Source: Thermodesulfobacteriota bacterium (GTDB lineage Bacteria > Desulfobacterota > Desulfobacteria > Desulfobacterales > UBA11574). Taken from it: a DNA stretch of 64,000 nt. A model generated the notes under the pieces. That model was not told the origin of the DNA and ran no database searches. It saw only the letters and a list, made by a program, of their open reading frames with translations. The stretch lies in assembly GCA_042573625.1 (NCBI GenBank), contig JBHPCZ010000001.1:12859-76858 (forward strand), written 5' to 3'. Each line of letters opens with the position of its first letter. The first letter of the stretch is position 1. A program made the translations under genes and the position numbers. Below are positions 3,086-33,241 of the stretch, piece after piece.

Positions 3086-4093
3086 GTGGATACGAATATA
3101 GAACAGGTTAAGGAAGATGCATTAAAGGAACTTGAAACCGCATCTGACAAAAAACAAATCGATGATCTTTCTGTTCGATATTTGGGAAGAAAGGGCAAAG
3201 TTACTCAGCTGTTGAGGAGTGTTTCGAAACTTCCCGAAGAAAAACGACCCGAAGCGGGGAGAAAGGCAAATGAGATAAAGCGAACACTGGAAGGCGTATT
3301 CAAAGATGCCCGAAGAAAAATCGAAACTCGCCCCACAGAAAAAGATGACGGAATTGATGTTTCACTGCCCGGCAGAGCGCTTCGGCAGGGCTCCTTGCAT
3401 CCGATCACACAAATTACAAACCAGATATGCGACATATTATCAAAACTCGGGTTTGATATCTATGAGGGACCTGAAGTTGAAACAGACTACTACAATTTTG
3501 AAGCCCTGAATATTCCGAAAAATCATCCGGCCAGAGATATGCAGGATACGTTCTATATTTCAGAAGATGTCGTCCTGAGAACCCATACATCTCCGATTCA
3601 GGTCAGGATAATGGAAAAGCTTTCTCCGCCGGTTCGAGTGATAGCACCCGGCAAGGTCTATCGCTGCGATTCCGACCTGACGCACACCCCCATGTTTCAC
3701 CAGGTTGAAGGGCTCCTGGTGGATGAAAATATATCTTTTGGAGATTTGAAGGGAACGCTGACCACTTTTGTCCACCAGATGTTTGACGACCGGACCAGCC
3801 TCAGATTTCGCCCCAGTTTTTTCCCTTTTACCGAACCAAGTGCCGAGGTCGATATTCTTTGTGTCATTTGTCGGGGCAAAGGGTGCCGGGTTTGTTCACA
3901 GACAGGGTGGCTCGAAGTCCTTGGCTCCGGTATGGTTCATCCTGCGGTGTTTGAAAACGTCGGATACGACACAACCCGCTATACCGGTTTCGCTTTCGGG
4001 ATGGGCGTTGAGCGGATTGCCATGCTGAAATATGGAATTGATGATATTCGGAAATTCTTTGAAAATGATTTAAGATTTTTAAGGCAATTTTAA
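3086..4093 (+). CDS. pheS: phenylalanine--tRNA ligase alpha subunit
   Basis: 335-aa ORF (GTG start) with class II aaRS motifs (HPARDMQDTFY, RTHTSPIQ, FRPSFFPFTEPSAEVD, GFAFGMGVERIAM). Confidence 0.95.
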   Translation: MDTNIEQVKEDALKELETASDKKQIDDLSVRYLGRKGKVTQLLRSVSKLPEEKRPEAGRKANEIKRTLEGVFKDARRKIETRPTEKDDGIDVSLPGRALRQGSLHPITQITNQICDILSKLGFDIYEGPEVETDYYNFEALNIPKNHPARDMQDTFYISEDVVLRTHTSPIQVRIMEKLSPPVRVIAPGKVYRCDSDLTHTPMFHQVEGLLVDENISFGDLKGTLTTFVHQMFDDRTSLRFRPSFFPFTEPSAEVDILCVICRGKGCRVCSQTGWLEVLGSGMVHPAVFENVGYDTTRYTGFAFGMGVERIAMLKYGIDDIRKFFENDLRFLRQF

Positions 4094-4094
4094 A

Positions 4095-6515
4095 ATGAAG
4101 GTCAGTTTAAGCTGGTTAAGCGAATATGTTGATATTGAAATAAAAGCAAACGACCTGGCAGACGCCCTTACTATGGCCGGTCTTGAAGTTGAAACTGTTT
4201 CAGACCGCTATGATTACCTTAATCGTGTTGTTGTCGGTCGAGTTGCCGAAATTCGCCCGCATCCCAAAAATGACGCGCTGAAGCTATGCCGGGTAGAAAC
4301 CGGTGGCAGCACGATCTCAGTCGTCTGCGGTGCGCCCAATACAAAAGAAGACATGCTTGCACCATGTGCCTTTCCCGGCACGGTGTTGCCAAACGGAACC
4401 GTCCTCGAAAAAAGTCTGATTCGAGAAGAAGTGTCGGAAGGGATGCTTTGCAGCGAAATCGAATTGGGGTTGGGTACCGGAAGTGACGGTATCATGGAAC
4501 TCGGTCGGAATCTTTCAATCGGTGATCCGCTGAATCAAGCCCTTAATTTATCTGACACAGTATTCGAAATCGATTTGACGCCGAACAGACCGGATTGCCT
4601 CAGTGTTATTGGAATTGCTCGCGAAATAGCGGCAATTCAACAAACAAAGATTAAATACCCTGAGATTCACCTGCCGGAATCATCTGATGACATATCCGAA
4701 TATACCTCTGTTACAATAAACGACCCTGAATTATGCCCAAGATATGCCGCCAGTCTTATTTTTGACATCACTGTCGGGCCGTCTCCTTATTGGCTTCAGG
4801 ACCGTTTAATTTCAGTAGGTTTAAAACCGATCAACAATATTGTTGATATTACCAACTTTGTAATGATGGAAACCGGTCAGCCGCTCCACGCCTTTGACCT
4901 TGACCACCTTGCCGAGAACCGGATCATCGTACGCACAGCCGGTAAGGGAGAAGCTTTTATTACACTGGACGGGAAAGAACGCCGCCTTGACCCGGAAATG
5001 CTGATGATCTGCGATGGTAAAAAACCTGTCGCTATCGGGGGCGTTATGGGCGGGCTCAACTCGGAAGTTGAAAATTCTACGACAAAAATTCTTCTCGAGA
5101 GCGCATATTTCAACCCGGTCAGCATTAGAAAGACTTCAAAAAAATTAGGGTTAAATACAGACGCTTCGCACCGTTTTGAGCGCGGCGTCGATCCCGGCGG
5201 TACCCTTCGGGCATTACACCGGGCAACACAGCTCATTGCTGAAATCGGCAACGGCAAAATGGTTAAGGGCGTGATCGACGAATATCCGAACCCTGCCTCG
5301 GGAAAGACGATCATTCTTAGCGCCAAAGCCTTAAATCACCACCTGGGTACTCGCCTAAATTTGGCTGAAATCAATAACCATTTAAAATCGATTGAATTTG
5401 AAGTTAAAAAAATCGATGATGACAAACTCCAGGTTGTTCCTCCGTCATGCAGGGTCGATATCAGCAGGTTTGAAGACCTTTCAGAGGAAATTGCGCGTCT
5501 GTATGGCTATAACAATATCGAAACCACCTTTCCATCGATACCGGCTGAATCCAGACAGGCTTCAGAGAAGATTGTCTCAAGAGACCTTGCCAAACGATTG
5601 ATGATCGGATTGGGGTTTAACGAAGCAATCAATTACAGTTTTATCAGCAAATTGTCTGGTGATCGGCTTGAACTGGAACCGGATGATCCCAAAAGAAACA
5701 CTGTGGACATTTTAAATCCGTTGTCTGAAGACCAGTCTGTGTTGAGAACATCTTTGATACCCGGGCTGCTCGAAACAATGCATTACAATCTTTCGATGCA
5801 GAATAACAATGTCAAGCTGTTTGAGATCGGCAATGTCTTTTTTAACACCGGCCAGAAAGATGCTCAGCCTGATGAGGTTGAAATGTTTGCAGGACTCTGG
5901 ACAGGGCATAGGGTCGACGCTGCCTGGTTTTCCAAGGAGATCCATTGTGATTTTTATGACTTAAAAGGCGTTGTTGAAGAGCTTTTAAGAAATTTGGGCG
6001 GCATTACCGCCACATTTGCCCGAATACCGCCGGAATCCTGTTTTATCACAAGACCCGGATCCACGGCCCAGATTATTGTTGAAAACGAATGGGCGGGACT
6101 CATCGGAGAAGTACATCCAGCATTAATTCGGAATTACAATCTGAAACAGAAGACGTTTATTTTTGAACTCAATTTCGATCAGTTGATCGCCCATATTCAA
6201 GACCCTAAATCCACACAACCTCTCCCGAAATTTCCACCGACATCAAGGGATGTCACACTGATTGTCGATACGGACATTGAAGCGTATAATATTCTGAAAA
6301 GCGTTGAAAATCTCAATGAAGAACTGATTGAAGATATTCATCTCTTTGCTGTTTTTCAGGGTGACCCGGTTCCTGTGGGGAAAAAAAGTATTTCATTCAG
6401 AATAACCTACAGGTCTTCGACTGAAACTCTGGAAGATAACACAGTCAATCACCTTCACATGCAAATCGCTGACAAGGTTGTGAAAAAATTTAATGCAACA
6501 CTACCGAGTCTATAA
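4095..6515 (+). CDS. pheT: phenylalanine--tRNA ligase beta subunit
   Basis: 806-aa ORF starting 1 nt after the pheS stop. Carries the MKVSLSWL N-terminus, a tRNA-binding domain and B3/4, B5 and FDX-ACB-like regions. Confidence 0.95.
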   Translation: MKVSLSWLSEYVDIEIKANDLADALTMAGLEVETVSDRYDYLNRVVVGRVAEIRPHPKNDALKLCRVETGGSTISVVCGAPNTKEDMLAPCAFPGTVLPNGTVLEKSLIREEVSEGMLCSEIELGLGTGSDGIMELGRNLSIGDPLNQALNLSDTVFEIDLTPNRPDCLSVIGIAREIAAIQQTKIKYPEIHLPESSDDISEYTSVTINDPELCPRYAASLIFDITVGPSPYWLQDRLISVGLKPINNIVDITNFVMMETGQPLHAFDLDHLAENRIIVRTAGKGEAFITLDGKERRLDPEMLMICDGKKPVAIGGVMGGLNSEVENSTTKILLESAYFNPVSIRKTSKKLGLNTDASHRFERGVDPGGTLRALHRATQLIAEIGNGKMVKGVIDEYPNPASGKTIILSAKALNHHLGTRLNLAEINNHLKSIEFEVKKIDDDKLQVVPPSCRVDISRFEDLSEEIARLYGYNNIETTFPSIPAESRQASEKIVSRDLAKRLMIGLGFNEAINYSFISKLSGDRLELEPDDPKRNTVDILNPLSEDQSVLRTSLIPGLLETMHYNLSMQNNNVKLFEIGNVFFNTGQKDAQPDEVEMFAGLWTGHRVDAAWFSKEIHCDFYDLKGVVEELLRNLGGITATFARIPPESCFITRPGSTAQIIVENEWAGLIGEVHPALIRNYNLKQKTFIFELNFDQLIAHIQDPKSTQPLPKFPPTSRDVTLIVDTDIEAYNILKSVENLNEELIEDIHLFAVFQGDPVPVGKKSISFRITYRSSTETLEDNTVNHLHMQIADKVVKKFNATLPSL

Positions 6516-21510: not shown

Positions 21511-21652
21511 AAAAACACTAATATATTGCATACGCATTCTTTATAGCCTGAAAACAAACCCCAGGTTAAAACTTCAATCCAAACATCCCACAATGTGGCA
21601 TTAACCGTTTGAAATAACATTCATTTTTGTTGACTCTCCGGTAACGTTGTGA
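21511..21652 (+). repeat. 5' promoter-region module, copy A (homologous to 30524-30669)
   Basis: Aligns by eye with copy B. Shares an exact 17-mer AAACATCCCACAATGTG (21581-21597 vs 30593-30609), the block TTCTTnATAGCCTrAAAAC, TAACCnnTTTGAA, and a TTGAC -35 box (21630-21635). Confidence 0.7.
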
Positions 21653-25497: not shown

Positions 25498-25640
25498 TCT
25501 GAAAGTTAAAATATTTGTGATATTGTTTTCCGATAGGGCGAATCCATTTTGCGGGGTTTGCCTTTTTGATTTTTTGTGGATTACTCGATATGTATAATCG
25601 TGATAGCCCGGCTTCAGGTTGTGTTTATTGTAAGATATGC
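25498..25640 (+). repeat. 3' module, copy A (homologous to 31195-31340)
   Basis: Aligns with copy B across the terminator and about 60 nt beyond it. Shared blocks: TTGTGrTATyGTTTT, GGGCrAATCCATTT, GGGGTTTG, ATATGTA, GGCTTCAG and TTGTAAG. Confidence 0.7.
25537..25575 (+). terminator. rho-independent terminator inside 3' module A
   Basis: GGCGAATCC pairs with GGGTTTGCC (2 G-U pairs) around an 8-nt loop. Followed by TTTTTGATTTTTT. Lies between convergent genes. Confidence 0.6.
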
Positions 25641-25722
25641 CAAATTTGATTTCGGATAGAAACCTTCACTTTTCGGCAATTTAAAGTGTCACCATAGTCT
25701 ATGATCACTATACAAGCCAATT

Positions 25723-26628
25723 TTATTTTTTATATTGTCTACCACCGGAACCACCACCGGGACCGCCACCGAAACCACCACCGGGACCACCACCAAGACT
25801 ATCAATGGGGCTAGCATCGAAGTCGCCTGCCCCTCTTTGATCGTCAGTTTTCCAGGGTTGGGTATGTATATCGGAGCTAAGATTTTCTGCTCTTACCCCA
25901 TGACTGATAGCATGAGAATACTGGTTGGCAAGTTTGACTGGATCAGTGCTCCTGGAATGACTCATAAACGAATGGCGCAGCTGTTTCATTTCCTGGGTGC
26001 TGTATTGCTGATTATGTGCATGACACACTACGTCTTTTGCAATTCTAGATGAAACACCGAGACGGGCCATATCTCTGAGCGATAGAAAACTTTCCTGGGC
26101 AAGCGCTTCTGTGTTGGTTTTCGTTCTCTGTTGTGTTCTGTTCTGCAATCTATTCATGACCTGAACAGCATCCTTGTTGTGTATACCGGCTGTAAATCCC
26201 TCTGCAATAGCCTTCGTAATATCGTGTATACGATCTGTATTTTGCGTAATTTGTCTGGCATGATTATTTGCGATTGAGTAGCGATATCGTGTCCTCTCCA
26301 TTGCTCGAAGCACTAAATCTTGAGGAGCATTTTTGGCAAGACCCTCAAAAGCTTTATTCATAACAGGCTTAACCGGCAAACTTTCTTTTACAGTAGCCAT
26401 CAAGATCTGTTGTGCTCGTATGGTGTTTTGGTTCTGGTAATTGTTTTGTATCATCATTTTAGTCACTTTTACGGCTTCATCTCTATGAATACCAGCATTA
26501 ACCATGGCACGAGTATGGGTTCTGATCTGCTCGTTGGCTATTGTAGATAGTTCACGATCAACTTCATCCCCAAAAGCCAAGGATGCAACAAGGGAAATGC
26601 CGAATATGACAATTAAAAATTTTTTCAT
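25723..26628 (-). CDS. secreted helical protein with a Gly-rich C-terminal tail
   Basis: 301-aa ORF with signal peptide MKKFLIVIFGISLVASLAFG and tail GGGPGGGFGGGPGGGSGGRQYKK. Last gene of the ECF sigma operon. No family recognised. Confidence 0.6.
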   Translation of the reverse strand: MKKFLIVIFGISLVASLAFGDEVDRELSTIANEQIRTHTRAMVNAGIHRDEAVKVTKMMIQNNYQNQNTIRAQQILMATVKESLPVKPVMNKAFEGLAKNAPQDLVLRAMERTRYRYSIANNHARQITQNTDRIHDITKAIAEGFTAGIHNKDAVQVMNRLQNRTQQRTKTNTEALAQESFLSLRDMARLGVSSRIAKDVVCHAHNQQYSTQEMKQLRHSFMSHSRSTDPVKLANQYSHAISHGVRAENLSSDIHTQPWKTDDQRGAGDFDASPIDSLGGGPGGGFGGGPGGGSGGRQYKK

Positions 26629-26682
26629 GATTTCGTCCTATATTAAGGCTTTATTCTTTATAACGTATTTAGGGGTAAAAGG

Positions 26683-27009
26683 TTACATGTCCGGGACAAA
26701 AATACAATTTTCGGAACCAAAATCGTCCTTCTCTTTAAACCGACAGGGCGGTACATACACGATACCGTCTATAATATAAAAGTAAGTAAATTCTAATCCT
26801 GCTGGCATCGTCACCAACCAGGTCTTTGAATCAATTTTTTCTACCTGATGAAGTTGATATCCATCCTCTGAGGATGCAAATGAGACAGTATGTGCTTCCG
26901 GTTTTTCTAGATATATGTGTGTCAAATTTCCTTTAACTTGACAAAAATGGCCTGTACACCCCATTAAGCTCATTGCCAGAAATAAAGTTGCTGTAATAGA
27001 ACGTTTCAT
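26683..27009 (-). CDS. lipoprotein with a CBM48/AMPK-beta GBD-like (E-set) domain
   Basis: Lipobox LMGC. The C-terminus KDDFGSENCIFVP parallels PDDFGGENSIFYV of the adjacent anti-sigma factor. Confidence 0.6.
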   Translation of the reverse strand: MKRSITATLFLAMSLMGCTGHFCQVKGNLTHIYLEKPEAHTVSFASSEDGYQLHQVEKIDSKTWLVTMPAGLEFTYFYIIDGIVYVPPCRFKEKDDFGSENCIFVPDM

Positions 27010-27569
27010 ATTTTGTTCTTTACATAAAATATGGAGTTCTCACCACCAAAATCATCTGGCTCCCGGGTTAGTATCGTTGGATCAGCGAATGGTTGCTGGC
27101 CCTCTATCAAATAGGTAAAGCGATGCTCTCCTTCTTTCAATTCATAGGTGACCTCCCAGTACCCGCTGTTGCCGATTTTTTGCATTGGAACTCGTTCCCA
27201 TTCTGTAAAGCTCCCCGTGATCTCTACCTGGCTGACATTCGGTTTGTAAACTACAAATCGTTTCACTACCGGGCTAGGTATTGGCGACGGTACGGTAAGA
27301 AACAGATAAATAACTGTGGCGGCCAATGCCGATGTAACCAGACCCATCGGCTGAAAAAAGGGACTGAAAAATCTTTTCCAGCTAAAAGGTGTCATCACTT
27401 TAGCGGATGGAATATGTTCGACAACATCACTCTGGATGAGTTTTTCCTGATGCAATAATTCTAATACCTCATCGGTAAAAGATTTATCTTTTTGCATGGT
27501 TTCAATAAAATCAATTTTGTCATCAACGTTCATCTCATTATCAATAAACATGCTGATATTATAATTCAT
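27006..27569 (-). CDS. anti-sigma factor, single TM, extracytoplasmic CBM48-like domain
   Basis: 4-nt overlap with the downstream gene and directly abuts the sigma gene. One TM segment (GLVTSALAATVIYLFLTV). The C-terminal ITGSFTEWERVPM...GYWEV...LKEGEHRFTYLIEG...ADP resembles the AMPK-beta glycogen-binding module. Confidence 0.65.
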   Translation of the reverse strand: MNYNISMFIDNEMNVDDKIDFIETMQKDKSFTDEVLELLHQEKLIQSDVVEHIPSAKVMTPFSWKRFFSPFFQPMGLVTSALAATVIYLFLTVPSPIPSPVVKRFVVYKPNVSQVEITGSFTEWERVPMQKIGNSGYWEVTYELKEGEHRFTYLIEGQQPFADPTILTREPDDFGGENSIFYVKNKI

Positions 27570-28046
27570 TTAATCCTCTCCTGCCTGAAGAATCTCTTTT
27601 AGCCTGATACGGGCTCGGTGAACTTTGACTTTTACATTAGCCTCACTTATTCCGATTATGCTTGCAATTTCCCTATATGATAGATCACTGCTAACCGTTA
27701 GAGCAAGGATGTCTCTTTGGTCTTTATTGAGTTTGTGCATGGCGGACAGCACATTACGATACGACTCCCGCACTAAAGTCAGCTGTTCGGGGTCAATCGT
27801 TGTATCTTCGATGTCGTTTTCTATTTCTTTGTTGTACTTTTTTTTGCGAGCATTGTCCCAGACGGCGTTCCTTGCAATGGTGAACAGCAACGAAACATTT
27901 TGTGTCTGTGGACCATATTTTTCCAGATAACGAGTGAAACTCTCCTGCATTATATCGCTGGATAGCTGATAGTTGCTGGTCAAACGCATCAGATAGCCGA
28001 ACAACTTATCTTTTTGAGTCCAGTAAAATGGACTAAATTTATCCAC
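27570..28046 (-). CDS. ECF-type RNA polymerase sigma factor
   Basis: 158 aa. Region 2 (SSDIMQESFTRYL) and region 4 HTH (LSYREIASIIGISEANVKVKVHRARIRLK). Confidence 0.85.
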   Translation of the reverse strand: MDKFSPFYWTQKDKLFGYLMRLTSNYQLSSDIMQESFTRYLEKYGPQTQNVSLLFTIARNAVWDNARKKKYNKEIENDIEDTTIDPEQLTLVRESYRNVLSAMHKLNKDQRDILALTVSSDLSYREIASIIGISEANVKVKVHRARIRLKEILQAGED

Positions 28047-28055
28047 GATACTTTT

Positions 28056-28083
28056 ATAACGTACGAAACATCAAAAGGTTACA
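28056..28083 (-). promoter_or_regulatory. ECF-type promoter (autoregulatory candidate) TGTAACCTTTT-N11-CGTTAT
   Basis: The minus strand reads TGTAACCTTTTGATGTTTCGTACGTTAT and ends 9 nt before the sigma ATG (28046). It has the same motif and spacing as the plus-strand copy at 28228. Confidence 0.55.
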
Positions 28084-28227
28084 GAATTATTTAATTTCCA
28101 GATAATCTACAGTAAAGCTTATACTCTATAGTATATGTTCTTATCAATTCAATTCTACAGCTGCTTCAACGGTTGTGGCTGCTTTCACCTGCCAACCGAC
28201 CATTTATGTAATTTTTTTTTGATATGT

Positions 28228-28255
28228 TGTAACCTTTTCACACCCCATACGTTAT
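28228..28255 (+). promoter_or_regulatory. ECF-type promoter, divergent twin of 28056-28083
   Basis: TGTAACCTTTTCACACCCCATACGTTAT. The -35-like (GTAACC) and -10-like (CGTTAT) boxes are identical and the offset is the same 22 nt. Confidence 0.55.
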
Positions 28256-28659
28256 CAATTGTTAAAGGGTGAGATGGATTGAGAAAGGTCACATCACCTA
28301 CTTGTTGAAACTGATGCTGAATTTGTTTTAACTTGCTAATTCCCTGCAGCTTGCTGCAGGGAGATTCATTGATGAACTAAAAACATCGAAAGAGAAGTGA
28401 ATAGAACTATTTTTTATGTAAGGAGGTATGAATTAAAAAAGTATAATAAACGCTTAAATTATTCAACACTTAGTCTAATTATTAACAAATATAATGATGT
28501 TATATCAAGGAATCTGGATGCGACTTCGTCAGATAGCCGTTCTTTTTATTTGCTCAATTTATTAGCGAAAGGAGGTGAAAATTAAGGCCGAGGGTGTGGA
28601 AAGATGAAAGATGTCAGAAAATCCAAAATGATTACAACGAATTATATGGAGGTAAAATT

Positions 28660-29073
28660 ATGACGTTTCAATATTCCCAAAAGGTCATTTTTAGTGCTGT
28701 TTGTCTTTTCATGTTGTCTCTAACTGCTTTTTCTTTGGCGCCAAAAGATTGCCACGCTTTTGAGATTACGATTGATGTGGCTCCAAACGTTCTTTCTCTT
28801 CAGAATAATGGCCAGGTGGTGACTGTACATACAGATATTCCTTATGATGATGTTGAGCTTACTAGTGTGCATATAAATGGTGTGCTTATTGATAGCTGGG
28901 AGTCGGATGTTCGTGGCTACTTTGTGGCCAGGTTTGTAATGAACGCGATTAAAAACTTGCCTTTAGTTATCGGCGATTACAATACATTCACGTTAGTTGG
29001 AAAAACTTTTTCGGACGGAGAATTTTCGGGGTCTCAAGATATTCTTGTTGTGGAGAATGATCCGAAGAATTAG
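28660..29073 (+). CDS. secreted hypothetical protein (beta-rich)
   Basis: ATG at 28660 lies 6 nt after GGAGGT. Hydrophobic signal segment VIFSAVCLFMLSLTAFSLA. The ORF-track GTG start at 28594 adds a non-signal extension. Confidence 0.6.
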   Translation: MTFQYSQKVIFSAVCLFMLSLTAFSLAPKDCHAFEITIDVAPNVLSLQNNGQVVTVHTDIPYDDVELTSVHINGVLIDSWESDVRGYFVARFVMNAIKNLPLVIGDYNTFTLVGKTFSDGEFSGSQDILVVENDPKN

Positions 29074-29517
29074 TAACGGTGCCGGTCAAGGATGAAGTGT
29101 GTTCCGAAATAACCTGCTGGGATTAATTGAAATACATCGAAAATTAGATATAACAAAACATTCGAGAGGGACCGGGAACTTACCCAAAGAAAGCGGACAC
29201 CAAAAGCTAACTAACGGAGGGTGTCCAAATGGCAAGAATCAAAGGGCTTCAAAGCCCGTATAAACCGCGTTTATACCAGGAACCCAAAGGTTCATCGATT
29301 TTTCAAACGAACTGGAAATTTACGGATAGATCAACCCGCACCCCATGCGATCAACCAGGTTAATGGGATGCTACTTGAAGGGAAGATCACCGGGAAATGC
29401 CGCGGCTTTTTATCGGCGCCTTTTATCCATTTTTTTGGCTTTAGAATCGACCTTCGGTGATCGTTTCCCGGCCCCTCATTTCCACCGTTCAAAAAACAGC
29501 AATTCAATCAGGAAAGG

Positions 29518-29664
29518 ATGAAAAAACTTTTTTTGATCTTGGTAATCTTTGTATCGTTTACAGCGTTTGCTTTTGCCGGTGGTGACCAAAATCATGGCAG
29601 CAAGGGACAAGGCAGTACAGGTAGTGACGGACAAGGCCAAACAACCCAACAGCGAGGCGATTAA
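29518..29664 (+). CDS. small secreted Gly/Gln-rich peptide (48 aa), below the ORF-track length cutoff
   Basis: Hand translation: MKKLFLILVIFVSFTAFAFAGGDQNHGSKGQGSTGSDGQGQTTQQRGD. SD AGGAAAGG directly upstream. Classic signal peptide. Confidence 0.5.
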   Translation: MKKLFLILVIFVSFTAFAFAGGDQNHGSKGQGSTGSDGQGQTTQQRGD

Positions 29665-29791
29665 ATAATTCACTCAACAAAAAGGGGGATAAATGGAACT
29701 TGTGACGACGCCACTTCTTGAAAAATGGAAGGTGGAAAGTGCTGAGTTTCTGTGTGTACTGCCGTAAAAACAGGATTAGGGTTTCTTTTTT

Positions 29792-30010
29792 ATGATTAAT
29801 ATTGTCAGAAATAGAAGAGGTAGACGACCCAGAACAGCCAGACGGGCATCCTTAAGAGACAGGCGGGCATTCTTAAGAGACAGACGGGCATCCTTAATAG
29901 ATAGAAGGGCATTCTTATCTGTAGTCCGTATTCCTAATAGAAGAAGTGGAAGAGACAGAAGGAGTTGGTCTGACCGCAGAGGTGGCGTTGAACGCAGAAG
30001 TATTCACTAA
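29792..30010 (+). CDS. Arg-rich DRR-repeat small protein (coding status uncertain)
   Basis: 72-aa ORF containing RRASLRD RRAFLRD RRASLID RRAFLSV, then RRSGRD RRSWSD RRGGVE RRS. The RR periodicity continues past the DNA repeat. SD is weak. Confidence 0.4.
   Translation: MINIVRNRRGRRPRTARRASLRDRRAFLRDRRASLIDRRAFLSVVRIPNRRSGRDRRSWSDRRGGVERRSIH
29839..29943. repeat. tandem 21-bp repeats (4 good copies plus 1 degenerate)
   Basis: CAGACGGGCATCCTTAAGAGA / CAGGCGGGCATTCTTAAGAGA / CAGACGGGCATCCTTAATAGA / TAGAAGGGCATTCTTATCTGT / AGTCCGTATTCCTAATAGA. Confidence 0.85.
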
Positions 30011-30069
30011 TTGAAGTGAAACTAAATATCACTCCCAAGTGTCTTAGATAAAGGGTTTTGGAATTTACC

Positions 30070-30444
30070 ATGGATAGTAAGGAATTTAAAAGCTTCCGCC
30101 TAAAAATGAACAAGACGCAACACCAGGTGAGCCGTCTACTCGGAACGTCTATAAAGACTATACAAAGTTATGAACAGGGTTGTCGAAACATACCAAATCA
30201 CGCAGAGCGGCAGATGCTTTATCTAATTTCCAGGATGAAAGAAAGCCACAATACTCAAAAACCATGCTGGGTTATCAAACAATGTCCTCGATGGGTAAAA
30301 AATAAATGCCCGGCCTGGGAATTTGATTCGGGGGATTTATGCTGGTTTATTAATGGTACATATTGTGGTGGTAATGTTGTTGAGAGCTGGGAACAAAAAA
30401 TGAAACTTTGCCGGTCCTGTGAAGCTTTCTCATTCTTGAGCTAA
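30070..30444 (+). CDS. XRE-family HTH regulator with a C-terminal Cys/Trp-rich (two-CW-like) domain
   Basis: HTH is FRLKMNKTQHQVSRLLGTSIKTIQSYEQG. C-terminus is PCWVIKQCPRWVKNKCPAWEF..DLCWFINGTYCGG...CRSCEAF. ATG at 30070 preferred over the TTG at 30058. Confidence 0.75.
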   Translation: MDSKEFKSFRLKMNKTQHQVSRLLGTSIKTIQSYEQGCRNIPNHAERQMLYLISRMKESHNTQKPCWVIKQCPRWVKNKCPAWEFDSGDLCWFINGTYCGGNVVESWEQKMKLCRSCEAFSFLS

Positions 30445-30523
30445 CTCAAAAACACTTCTAATCATACAACGATACTTTCGATAATGGTTTGAAATCCTCT
30501 GTCCGAAACCTGTGTGTTCTGCA

Positions 30524-30669
30524 ATAAAACACACCAAATATTGTATTCGTCTTTCTTCATAGCCTAAAAACCTTGTACCACAACTCCTATAAAAACATCC
30601 CACAATGTGTGATAACCTATTTGAATTACTACATAAATTGTCATAATTTTCTTGACAACGTCACAATCC
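30524..30669 (+). repeat. 5' promoter-region module, copy B (homologous to 21511-21652)
   Basis: See copy A. Carries the exact 17-mer at 30593-30609. Confidence 0.7.
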
Positions 30670-30680
30670 TTGTTCATAAT
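30652..30680 (+). promoter_or_regulatory. sigma-70-type promoter
   Basis: TTGACA (30652-30657), a 17-nt spacer, then CATAAT (30675-30680). Lies about 120 nt upstream of the 30802 gene. Confidence 0.55.
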
Positions 30681-30721
30681 TTACTGTGGCCAATCTTTCT
30701 AATTCAAAAAAGGGATATAAC

Positions 30722-30808
30722 ATGAATTGTATCCCCTTTGATATCCCCTGCTTGCCATGGGGAGCGTCATTTAATTTAATCAGTAACAGAAAGGGGGCAG
30801 AATGTTAA
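30722..30808 (+). CDS. candidate upstream ORF / leader peptide (28 aa) overlapping the start of the next gene
   Basis: Hand translation: MNCIPFDIPCLPWGASFNLISNRKGAEC. AAGGGA lies 6 nt upstream. The stop TAA (30806-30808) overlaps the ATG at 30802. The region also folds into two hairpins. Confidence 0.3.
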   Translation: MNCIPFDIPCLPWGASFNLISNRKGAEC

Positions 30809-31152
30809 AAAAAATGTTCAAGATTATTTTTTTCGTTTTTCTGGTGGGGCTTTTGATTTCGCCGGCGTGGAGCTCAGACAACATCGTCATCGACACGGAT
30901 CGTAATTTAATTCTCGCTGGAAGCGGAGGAGGAGACCAAGACAGAGACCAAGACAGAAAGCGTGACGAATCTTGTAACGACCTCGCCCCTTACAACCCTG
31001 TTCATCCTTTAATTCTCGCTAGAGGAGGAAACGGTGGCAACGGCGGCGGCGGTGGCCACGGCGGCGGTGGCGGCGGCGATCAAAGCAGGGACAGGGACTG
31101 TGACGATGGTGACGGCCCTCAACCTGAAGGCCCTAACGGCCCCGGCACCTGA
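30802..31152 (+). CDS. secreted Gly/Asp/His-rich repeat protein
   Basis: Signal peptide ending PAWS. Internal duplication: LILAGSGGGDQDRDQDRKRDESCND versus LILARGGNGGNGGGGGHGGGGGGDQSRDRDCDDGD. SD GGGGG upstream. Confidence 0.65.
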   Translation: MLKKMFKIIFFVFLVGLLISPAWSSDNIVIDTDRNLILAGSGGGDQDRDQDRKRDESCNDLAPYNPVHPLILARGGNGGNGGGGGHGGGGGGDQSRDRDCDDGDGPQPEGPNGPGT

Positions 31153-31194
31153 GATTGTAACCCGTGACGGAACTTGCGACGACGCCACTTCTTA

Positions 31195-31340
31195 AAAACC
31201 TGAAAATGTTGTGGTATCGTTTTTCAATAAGGGCAAATCCATTTGATGGGGTTTGTCCTTTTATTTTTATGATATATGTAATCAGTAAGAGCAGGCTTCA
31301 GCCTGTGATATTTGTAAGTATCTGCAATAACCTGCAAATA
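31195..31340 (+). repeat. 3' module, copy B (homologous to 25498-25640)
   Basis: See copy A. Confidence 0.7.
31230..31267 (+). terminator. rho-independent terminator inside 3' module B
   Basis: GGGCAAATCC pairs with GGGTTTGTCC (2 G-U pairs) around an 8-nt loop. Followed by TTTTATTTTT. Confidence 0.6.
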
Positions 31341-31536
31341 TCAAAAAGCTGAGTTTTTCCAGATATCCATTCCATATTACAAAATGTAAATGTCAGATAT
31401 GGTTGTGTCTGCAATTGGATAAATGCACAATTAAATCTTGGTCAATGCAATTAAATCCACCTGAAAACATCTAATCCGGGTTTTAAATCCTAACTGAGCA
31501 AAAGCGAGTGCCCCTTTATTTTTAGAACCATTCGAA

Positions 31537-32643
31537 TTAAATTTTCACCAGCTCATAATTTCGACTTCCAAGCCCCAGCTGCTCGGCATATTCCAACTGA
31601 TACGCCCAGTCCACCTTGGGATAAACCCCCCGAAACTTGTCTTCACCCGGTTTCATGTGGGTCTGGAGACAGGACCCGGGAAGCGCGTGCTCCTGGTTGA
31701 CAAGATCAACGGACGCCTGGTCGATAGCTACCGGATCTTTTGATGCAACAACGCCGATATCCCTGACGATGGGGGCATCGTTCATGGGATAACAGTCGCA
31801 TGCCGGAGAGACATCGGTGATGAAATTAATCGACAACGTCTTTTGGGATTTTCCCTTTAATACGCCCATGGTGTATTCAATCATGTTTTCCAAAAAAACA
31901 GGGATCGCCTGGTTCCATTCTATTTCTATGGCGGCGCTGGGGCAGACAAGGATACATTCGCCGCAACCGATACACTTTTTGGCATCCAGCACTGCTTTCT
32001 CCTCGACCAGGGAAAGGGCGTTCTGGGAACAGTGACCGACACAGTCTCCGCAGCCGATACACTTTTTCGTAATGACCTTTGGCGCCACGGTTGAATGCTG
32101 CGCCAGTTTGCCCCGCCGGGATGCGCACCCCATGCCCAGATTTTTTATCGCCCCGCCAAATCCGGAAAGCTCATGCCCTTTGAAATGCGCCACCGATATC
32201 AGCGCGTCGGCCTCGACGATATCCGTTCCAATGTAAACTCTCTTAAAATTCTTCTGATTGACAATGATGGATGTTTCGCTCCTGCCCCTTAGCCCATCGG
32301 CAATGATAATGGGCGCATCCACCACAGCGTAGGCAAAACCGTTTTGAATCGCTGTTGTCAGGTGATGGGGAGAGTCGCTCCGTGTCCCTGAATAGAGTGT
32401 GTTGGCATCTGTAAGAAATGGGACGCCATTAACACCTTTGATCGTTTCGACAATTTTCCGTAAAAATACAGGCCGTATAAATGCGGTGTTTCCCATTTCT
32501 CCAAAATGAAGCTTCACCGCAACAAGATCTCTTTCTTTGACAGCTTCGGAAAGACCCGCGGTTTCAATGAGCCTTCCCAGTTTTGCGACAAGGCTTTCTT
32601 TCATCGTTGCCCTAAGATCGATAAAATAGACTTTGCTTTTCAT
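31537..32643 (-). CDS. DUF362 family protein with an inserted 2x[4Fe-4S] ferredoxin domain
   Basis: N-terminus (VYFIDLR...VAVKLHFGE.GN..FIRP.F) is typical of DUF362. Also CIGCGDCVGHC and CIGCGECILVCP. Confidence 0.8.
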   Translation of the reverse strand: MKSKVYFIDLRATMKESLVAKLGRLIETAGLSEAVKERDLVAVKLHFGEMGNTAFIRPVFLRKIVETIKGVNGVPFLTDANTLYSGTRSDSPHHLTTAIQNGFAYAVVDAPIIIADGLRGRSETSIIVNQKNFKRVYIGTDIVEADALISVAHFKGHELSGFGGAIKNLGMGCASRRGKLAQHSTVAPKVITKKCIGCGDCVGHCSQNALSLVEEKAVLDAKKCIGCGECILVCPSAAIEIEWNQAIPVFLENMIEYTMGVLKGKSQKTLSINFITDVSPACDCYPMNDAPIVRDIGVVASKDPVAIDQASVDLVNQEHALPGSCLQTHMKPGEDKFRGVYPKVDWAYQLEYAEQLGLGSRNYELVKI

Positions 32644-32833
32644 TTTATCCCCCGGTCATTTTATAAAATTATTGATATCATTTGCCAGACAATTGGAAAG
32701 AATTAATTCTTTGTGCTCAAAATGGCTTCATGCTTTTCTGTTCTTCTCCCTTTCTTTCAGCGTCTGTTTTAAAACCGCCAGCATTAAACGGTCCTTTTCC
32801 CGAAAGGCTTCCTGTTTGATTTCGATAAGGTAT

Positions 32834-33241
32834 TCAAGACTTAGAATGCGTAGAATTTCGATGATCTGCGGTACGGTTTCTTGCATGTTTCAGCCTGGTA
32901 ATGGATAACATATTCTGCTGTAATACGTTCAAGCACTCTGCCGGTGTTAGAGAGAACATCCAACGAATCAAGGTCAGATCAACCCCGTCTTTGCTGTATG
33001 CCGGATTATCTTCCTGTGAATATACGATCAAATGAGATGGCTTATCCATACCGCCTTCTTTTCCTGCCAAAATGATACAGATGTTTACATCAATTAGCAC
33101 ATACCACGGACAAACCGCAAATTGTTTATGTGAAGATCTGGTCGATGGGTCCAATGAATCTGCGCTGACAGGCAAAAAAAATGCAGATTGAAAATCGGTG
33201 CGCCGGATGCATACATCTTGCAATTTCATGAGGATATCCAT
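32834..33241 (-). CDS. hypothetical protein
   Basis: 135-aa ORF with no recognised motif. Its 3' end overlaps a 52-aa minus-strand ORF (32728-32886, MQETVPQIIEILRILSLEYLIEIKQEAFREKDRL...) by 53 nt, so one of the two may be spurious. Confidence 0.35.
   Translation of the reverse strand: MDILMKLQDVCIRRTDFQSAFFLPVSADSLDPSTRSSHKQFAVCPWYVLIDVNICIILAGKEGGMDKPSHLIVYSQEDNPAYSKDGVDLTLIRWMFSLTPAECLNVLQQNMLSITRLKHARNRTADHRNSTHSKS

Follow-up and report, generated by a model that had tools for sequence, protein, structure and literature searches.

A 30-nucleotide box behind two small secreted-protein genes of a Thermodesulfobacteriota bacterium is probably the remnant of a gene end rather than a regulatory element

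Several described systems resemble a short conserved block that lies just downstream of a stop codon. Gene-end remnants and pseudogene fragments are known from bacterial paralogue families; in Escherichia coli, the promoters of RpoE (sigmaE) follow the consensus GGAACTT-N16-TCAAA, in which GGAACTT is the -35 heptamer; enterobacteria possess small RNAs that derive from 3' untranslated regions (UTRs) or occur as siblings, of the CpxQ, SroC and OmrA/OmrB type; and programmed recoding is exemplified by the +1 frameshift of prfB, the bypass of phage T4 gene 60 and the bacterial selenocysteine insertion sequence (SECIS). Here we analyze a 30-nucleotide (nt) box that occurs twice in a 64,000-nt stretch of a Thermodesulfobacteriota genome (assembly GCA_042573625.1, contig JBHPCZ010000001.1, positions 12,859 to 76,858; hereafter the window), once behind a gene for a 48-residue (48-aa) secreted peptide and once behind a gene for a 116-aa Gly/Asp-rich secreted protein. 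The explanation that we favor, with a probability of about 0.6 and on the basis of sequence comparison, is that the box represents the 3' end, eight codons (G-T-C-D-D-A-T-S) and a stop codon, of a Gly-rich secreted-protein gene with Cys motifs, of what is here termed the 'GPGDC' family, surviving twice as a relic. Like known bacterial remnants, the box is short, keeps the codon phase, motif and stop of its putative parent family, has disabling mutations just upstream (copy 2) or a missing gene body (copy 1), and is absent from related loci; unlike them, it persists as two separated copies that are still identical at 28 of 30 positions with silent differences only, a cleaner pattern than is usual for DNA in decay. 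The finding is mostly unremarkable, a known kind of feature in an undescribed instance, and its import is that of a correction: a repeat whose first seven bases are the textbook sigmaE -35 heptamer finds a better explanation as the cut-off end of a gene than as a regulatory element.

Both copies lie on the + strand, at 29695-29724 and 31169-31198, exactly where a preliminary description of this DNA had placed them. Its offsets are also right, the stop codons of the two genes ending at 29664 and 31152 and the boxes beginning 31 and 17 nt later, and so are its frame assignments, GTCDDATS plus stop continuing the frame of the 48-aa gene past its TAA and, at the second copy, standing in the +1 frame relative to the 116-aa gene. 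The sole differences between the copies are T/C at position 9 and G/A at position 26, and local alignment of the two regions limits the similarity to these 30 nt. No third match with three or fewer mismatches is present on either strand of the window, and 100 dinucleotide shuffles of the window contain none at all; the box is real and non-random. Beyond the window, a scan of 185,579 species-representative genomes with GGAACTTNNGACGACGCCACTT returned two matches, both judged to be due to chance, which occur in coding sequence of high GC content from unrelated phyla, one in an Acidobacteriota and one in an Opitutia genome, and leave out the 3' third of the box. Metagenomes scanned with a back-translation of GTCDDATS plus stop that tolerates wobble, and so admits any synonymous change, produced one chance match that overlaps, in another frame, the start of a gene with a twin-arginine translocation (Tat) signal. 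A scan of a viral collection for the box gave nothing, and literature searches on the peptide and box strings and on the two-CW domain of a regulator encoded between the copies yielded nothing relevant.

In frame 1, both copies read GGA ACT TGY GAC GAC GCC ACT TCT TRA, and the two differences (TGT/TGC and TGA/TAA) are both silent. Read in any of the remaining five frames, they either alter an amino acid or introduce a stop, frame 2 changing both residues and frame 3 acquiring a stop in copy 1. The 116-aa gene itself contains an internal paralogue of the box, detected in a repeat search, which is identical to each copy at 19 of 30 positions, stands in coding phase and has its Cys codon in register (E S C N D L A P Y N), and a second Cys-motif segment (R D C D D G D G P), in which TGT GAC GAT (31099-31107) matches TGY GAC GAC of the box. 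The similarity between the boxes starts at the first codon of the Cys motif and ends 3 nt after the stop codon, and selection on the protein would account for these limits and for the silent differences. The preliminary description had offered, as one of three readings, a coding remnant related to the CDD/CND motifs of the Gly-rich protein. As an account of the origin of the box this is supported by the match to the family Cys motif, the codon phase shared with the two internal segments and the silent differences; the accompanying idea of readthrough of the 48-aa gene is not, since all 28 homologues of its product have a common end point and the box is missing from six distinct related loci.

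The 116-aa protein, annotated as the NCBI hypothetical protein ACFL03_00215, belongs to a Gly-rich family (proteins P0123-P0170) for which no Pfam or NCBIfam model gives a match. It has weak matches in P0123 and P0124, with a signal peptide and a LILAxGG motif in common, and a profile built from these three proteins retrieved 47 family representatives, bringing the family to 49 with P0123 and P0124 and with the protein of the window counted among them. Members present a signal peptide of the form MLKKxxKIGCxVxVLGLLSxPAWSS and repeated units such as GYGPGDGTGNDGDGPxDGTGxGPGDC, each ending in Cys. In 35 of the 49 proteins a Cys is located within the last eight residues, as in the C-terminal ends GPGDCA, GTCINS, GTGDCING, GDCPSA, GECLVIVSG and GTCTAAS, and the box peptide fits the terminal motif of the family (G-[TDE]-C, zero to seven residues, stop). 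The annotated 116-aa protein, on the other hand, is among the 14 without such a Cys. Past its stop codon its own frame reads GPNGPGT-TGA-DCNP-TGA, in which the GPGTGDC of the family is present but with TGA for Gly, pointing to a GGA-to-TGA nonsense change, and the +1 frame reads ...TRDGTCDDATS followed by a stop. Changing T31150 to G and dropping one C from the CCC run a few nucleotides further on, where a 1-nt insertion would have occurred, yields a single 130-aa open reading frame (ORF) that ends in GPGTGDCNRDGTCDDATS (...GTGDCNRDGTCDDATS) and a stop codon. In BLASTP the restored 130-aa protein aligns end to end with P0169 (E = 2e-12), RDGTCDDA standing opposite RDGSCVDA. Since two edits restore this ORF, box 2 would be its own 3' end, and the 116-aa gene is to be read as a 3'-truncated member of the Cys-motif family. 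The truncation looks recent, unless it is an artefact of assembly or of mixed strains; the presence of long intact ORFs in other parts of the window speaks against a high error rate. In two distant family genes with readable DNA (L005 and L006), a terminator comes straight after the stop codon and no box is present.

The gene preceding copy 1 is unannotated in the source assembly, its 48-aa product matches no described family, and it is often linked to a cluster encoding an extracytoplasmic function (ECF) sigma factor. The peptide has 28 homologues at 47-96% identity, most of them 48-52 aa long and a few records showing upstream extensions, and the mature peptide of the family reads GGDQNHGSKGQGSTG...TTQxRGx. 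Because the homologues all end at the same residue, the TAA of the 48-aa gene is ancestral. Six distinct loci (L007, L008, L011, L012, L013 and L014; L009 and L010 have the same sequence as L008) were read past the stop codon, and in all six the box is absent and an intrinsic terminator is present. The flank of L012 and L013, ATAATYCAYTCAACAAAAAGG, matches the window nearly base for base up to 29686, past which these loci continue as a stem (CAGAG...CTCTGCC) and a T-run. This stem is missing in the window, where the ancestral terminator of the 48-aa gene breaks off 9 nt short of box 1, and terminator prediction yields none on the + strand from this gene to the two-CW gene. It follows from the comparison with L012 and L013 that the DNA around box 1 took the place of the 48-aa gene's terminator, and that the Shine-Dalgarno-like AAAGGGGG before box 1 is the left arm of the lost terminator.

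Copy 2 is succeeded almost immediately by an interspersed repeat, here termed element T, in which inverted GTGATATCG and CGATATATG ends flank an intrinsic terminator hairpin. Further copies are found in the window (25507-25647), in L015 (5087-5232 and 3525-3564 plus 3728-3831) and in L016 (531-676). Element T has been seen only in loci holding a two-CW regulator gene, and no Rfam family matches it. Given that it begins 2 nt after box 2, box 2 and element T would correspond to a stop codon and then its terminator. The box was rejected as the 5' part of element T, the copy at 25507-25647 lacking a box and nhmmer finding no element T after box 1. Further downstream, the decamer TTTTTATGAT, which occurs within the window only at 29787 and 31264, marks a second collinear island of similarity that opens an Arg-rich ORF at copy 1 and a 27-codon ORF at copy 2, the two ORF starts being 18/27 identical in frame.

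Table 1. Coordinates of the boxes and associated features in the 64,000-nt window
Feature	Position	Strand	Remarks
Box copy 1	29695..29724	+	GGA ACT TGT GAC GAC GCC ACT TCT TGA AAA = G T C D D A T S stop; putative orphan gene-end relic, no gene body upstream
Box copy 2	31169..31198	+	Same eight codons but TGC and TAA; putative former end of the 116-aa gene, now cut off
Internal paralogue of the box	30967..30996	+	Within the 116-aa gene
Second internal Cys-motif segment	31093..31119	+	
48-aa secreted peptide gene	29518..29664	+	Conserved family
Conserved 3' flank of the 48-aa gene	29665..29686	+	ATAATTCACTCAACAAAAAGG; A-tract and first bases of the ancestral terminator stem; similarity to related loci ends here
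Junction filler	29687..29694	+	From the truncated terminator arm to box 1; unrelated to the L012/L013 flank
Second similarity island	29782..29817	+	36 nt, 72% to 31259-31294; similar to the 3' portion of element T; Arg-rich ORF starts within it
Arg-rich ORF	29792..30010	+	72 aa, unannotated; between box 1 and the two-CW gene
Helix-turn-helix (HTH) and two-CW domain regulator gene	30070..30444	+	Between the two boxes
116-aa Gly/Asp-rich secreted protein gene	30802..31152	+	'GPGDC' family; annotated end without the terminal Cys of the family
In-frame TGA	31150..31152	+	Probable nonsense change
CCC run	31161..31163	+	One C removed gives ...DCNRDGTCDDATS and stop in one frame; probable 1-nt insertion
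Element T	31201..31334	+	~140 nt; strong terminator hairpin 31229-31260 and U-run

In light of these results, it seems reasonable to postulate that copy 2 once formed the 3' end of the very 116-aa gene that precedes it, from which it would have been cut off by the nonsense codon 19 nt upstream of the box and by the 1-nt insertion in the C-run 6-8 nt upstream of it. Copy 1 would be the same gene end from a paralogous copy that lost its body, fused, 9 nt past the breakpoint, to the truncated terminator of the unrelated 48-aa gene. Both units may descend from one arrangement, a family gene end followed by element T, of which copy 1 would have lost gene body and hairpin. The relationships between the sequences, the lack of a box in related loci and the truncated terminator are observed directly; the order and recency of the disabling events, as well as the former gene body upstream of copy 1, are what we infer from them. 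Under this scheme no present function for the box would be needed, and protein-level selection would have held the two copies alike for most of their separate history. If the island, with ~0.3 substitutions per site, is taken as a neutral proxy, zero changes at the ~21 non-silent positions of the box would have a probability of ~0.7^21, or ~6e-4, a rough estimate that points to such selection for most of that time. Neither copy lies in an unbroken ORF running from a start codon through the box, copy 1 standing behind the TAA of another gene and copy 2 in the +1 frame behind the TGA at 31150, and the box is therefore classed as a relic and not as live coding sequence.

Several observations weigh against a severed gene tail. 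There are only two copies with two differences between them, and with 19 of the 81 possible single-base changes in the coding frame of the box being silent, an all-silent pattern would arise by chance with a probability of ~0.05-0.1, which is weak evidence when taken alone, though it agrees with the other observations. Both copies have lost their reading context and yet show no non-silent change, so that either the losses must be recent or something else keeps the box. The 62-65 nt that follow the box are no more alike between the copies than shuffled sequence, and this succession of a box at 93% identity, a random middle and an island at 72% calls for a further event, in which, for example, copy 1 had its terminator hairpin replaced or destroyed. 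Assembly or strain mixture could have produced the nonsense codon and the frameshift as artefacts, in which case copy 2 would be live coding sequence. Finally, no intact paralogue ending in GTCDDATS and a stop codon was found in the window or in the genome, metagenome and viral collections.

Some of these points would be accommodated if the box, having originated as coding sequence, were now kept at the nucleotide level as a cis-element with another role, an explanation that we regard as doubtful. Such an element could be an RNA motif of the 3' UTR, for instance the 5' seed of sibling RNAs processed from both mRNAs and ending at a terminator or U-run ~65 nt further on, or a binding site for a regulator such as the neighboring two-CW or Arg-rich protein. 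It would explain the absence of non-silent hits in both orphaned copies, and it agrees with the contrast between the box and the random sequence that separates it from the island, with the location of both copies behind a stop codon and ahead of a U-run at nearly equal spacing (the islands start 92 and 95 nt after the box starts), with the identity of third codon positions at 7/8 and with the T/C difference, which would turn a U-G into a C-G pair in a small predicted hairpin (GYG-ACGA-CGC). Similarly, the CpxQ, SroC and OmrA/OmrB-type RNAs combine a conserved block between stop codon and terminator or U-run with a variable middle and two copies per genome. Unlike these RNAs, however, the box has no conservation in related 3' UTRs, being absent from the 3' flanks of all related loci examined (the six 48-aa loci and two family loci), no supported structure and no target complementarity, and copy 1 lacks a convincing terminator hairpin. 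The box with its immediate surroundings folds no better than shuffled sequence (z from +0.6 to -1.35), a single z-score of -2.35 stemming from the terminator hairpin, and no structure is common to both copies, their downstream pairing partners being different. Even at E values of up to 10, Rfam returned only chance hits (E 6-10) in 27000-33000, the whole window yielding one tRNA at gathering score, and in the rest of the window the box finds only such complementary 9-11-mers as chance would supply. Nor is it a palindrome, as an HTH operator would be expected to be, and a separate palindrome, CACAATGTG, constitutes a better operator candidate. The RNA- or protein-binding site put forward in the preliminary description thus obtains no positive support from folding, Rfam or complementarity. 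What we take to be a likeness to boxA of lambda nutL (CTCTTAAAAA against TTCTTAAAAA), with an Arg-rich ORF downstream and no boxB-like hairpin, is speculation only. The remaining initial proposal, a sigmaE-like promoter with GGAACTT as -35 and TTGAA/TTAAA as -10, is in our view very unlikely. Such a promoter would serve an alternative (ECF) sigma factor, box 1 driving an operon of the Arg-rich ORF and the two-CW gene and box 2 a short RNA or small ORF. The proposal draws on the E. coli sigmaE heptamer that opens both boxes, on the A-rich pentamer 16 nt downstream, on the location of each box 68-71 nt upstream of an ATG within the conserved TTTTTATGAT, where the two related ORFs start, and on the failure to find a sigma-70-like promoter for the Arg-rich and two-CW genes. 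Nevertheless, the putative -10 element at 16 nt has neither the TC of TCAAA/TCTGA nor the C of RpoE -10 elements, TCT is present at 14 nt only, and no CGT is found 16-17 nt after AAC. GGAACTT occurs 11 times in the window versus 9.6 times expected by chance, and the 16-nt spacer is 15/16 identical, as strongly conserved as the hexamers, for which a promoter has no need. Moreover, copy 2 points into a terminator, a 12-bp hairpin 31 nt on (31229-31260), the next gene is convergent, and the ECF sigma operon, 1.6 kb away, and two nearby units carry instead a different motif, TGTAACC-N16-CGTT, that recurs three times. A sigma-54 promoter was also discarded, as judged by eye, because GG and GC in the box are not 12 nt apart.

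The arrangement of the copies lends itself to two further explanations. The boxes might be direct repeats, such as attachment (att)-like cores or duplication junctions, around an inserted three-gene module of 1.47 kb beside a terminator element, which we consider quite unlikely. They do lie 1474 nt apart around the Arg-rich ORF, the two-CW regulator and the 116-aa gene, the terminator of the 48-aa gene is broken just before box 1, and in L015, an unrelated metagenome contig, direct repeats of 46-56 nt and 96-98% identity (3503-3548 and 5066-5111, 1563 nt apart) stand on either side of the two-CW gene and run into element T. These repeats are nonetheless unrelated in sequence to the box; no recombinase domain is encoded by the module or the neighboring genes scanned (25723-32643); related 48-aa loci hold no single box as an empty target site; and recombination would leave both the match to the family Cys motif and the silent differences unexplained. 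It is also conceivable, at a very low probability indeed, that the box is still translated as a C-terminal Cys tail through live recoding. Ribosomes would then occasionally resume on the box and add a Cys-containing ...CDDATS tail, giving two isoforms of each peptide. The proposed routes, equally improbable, would be UAA readthrough or ribosome hopping in the 48-aa gene and, in the 116-aa gene, either UGA readthrough combined with a +1 shift or a hop that takes off at ACC-UGA (31147) and lands on the matching ACU (31172). Recoding would account for strictly silent differences in the absence of an intact frame and for a stop that is kept as TGA/TAA; copy 1 is in frame behind a single TAA, and at copy 2 GGC ACC TGA is followed, 25 nt on, by GGA ACT TGC, matching Gly-Thr codons of which the first pair is ended by a stop. 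As at prfB, T4 gene 60 and SECIS sites, a conserved, coding-looking stretch follows a stop codon, with a G-rich Shine-Dalgarno-like run before copy 1 and matching codons on both sides of a gap at copy 2. Unlike those sites, the two copies lack a common mechanism, requiring different ones (UAA versus UGA, frame 0 versus +1); there is no slippery sequence and no Rfam match to SECIS; related genes end, unextended, at a stop codon with a terminator, no related 48-aa gene having an extension; and the Shine-Dalgarno-like AAAGGGGG is a relic of a terminator arm. Selenocysteine insertion is excluded by the UAA stop at copy 1, in agreement with the Rfam result. A small ORF in frame 2 (MELVTTPLLEK..., after AAAGGGGG-N4-ATG) was rejected as well: both differences are non-silent in this frame, copy 2 lacks an ATG as well as a Shine-Dalgarno sequence, and what looks like a Shine-Dalgarno sequence at copy 1 is again the left arm of the terminator. 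Should the relic explanation be wrong and the box be decoded or made into RNA, it would represent a compact new recoding or regulatory signal, but the evidence does not favor this.

The genes between the boxes present features of their own. The Arg-rich ORF (RNRRGRRPRTARRA..., with DRR repeats) includes four tandem 21-nt units at 29833-29916, and the synonymous nature of several differences between units suggests that it is really coding. In L003, a DRR-rich tail similar to this ORF ends a 176-aa protein encoded beside a two-CW gene. The two-CW regulator has an 84%-identical paralogue on another contig, of 15 kb, of the source assembly; its family comprises 1180 matches, and the neighborhoods in L003 and L015 differ from each other and hold no box. 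The palindrome CACAATGTG is the center of a 47-nt repeat (77% identical) found at 21570-21616 and at 30582-30628, the latter just upstream of a strong sigma-70-like promoter (30652-30680) of the 116-aa gene. The same palindrome precedes the two-CW genes of L003 (~5900) and L015 (~4520), and it is likely to be the operator of the two-CW regulator.

The nearby ECF sigma factor is encoded at 27570-28046, together with a CBM48-type anti-sigma factor. Its probable regulon motif, to judge from its recurrence, is a 31-nt ECF-type promoter-like sequence, TGTAACC-N16-CGTT(A/T), that is located at 28229-28258 (+), at 28082-28053 (-), preceding the ECF sigma operon, and at 26686-26657 (-), preceding a gene for a 301-aa protein; it is also present before a Gly-rich family gene and a 48-aa gene in L007 (4232) and L014 (4336). 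These elements outline a small envelope-related gene set in Thermodesulfobacteriota that comprises the ECF sigma factor with its CBM48-type anti-sigma factor, a likely promoter motif, the 48-aa peptide and the 'GPGDC' family. A protein of ~300 aa with a long poly-Gly/Ser/Ala tail is kept in the ECF sigma cluster (25723-26628 (-) in the window, 3276-4175 in L007 and 3330-4280 in L014), and the small lipoprotein encoded next to it carries the same CBM48-like fold signature as the anti-sigma factor. Elsewhere in the window, a 31-nt direct repeat of 90% identity (GTAKYTRACCCGCATTTCTCATGAAGAATTT, 338-368 and 41336-41366) spans the ATG of two genes that lie 41 kb apart.

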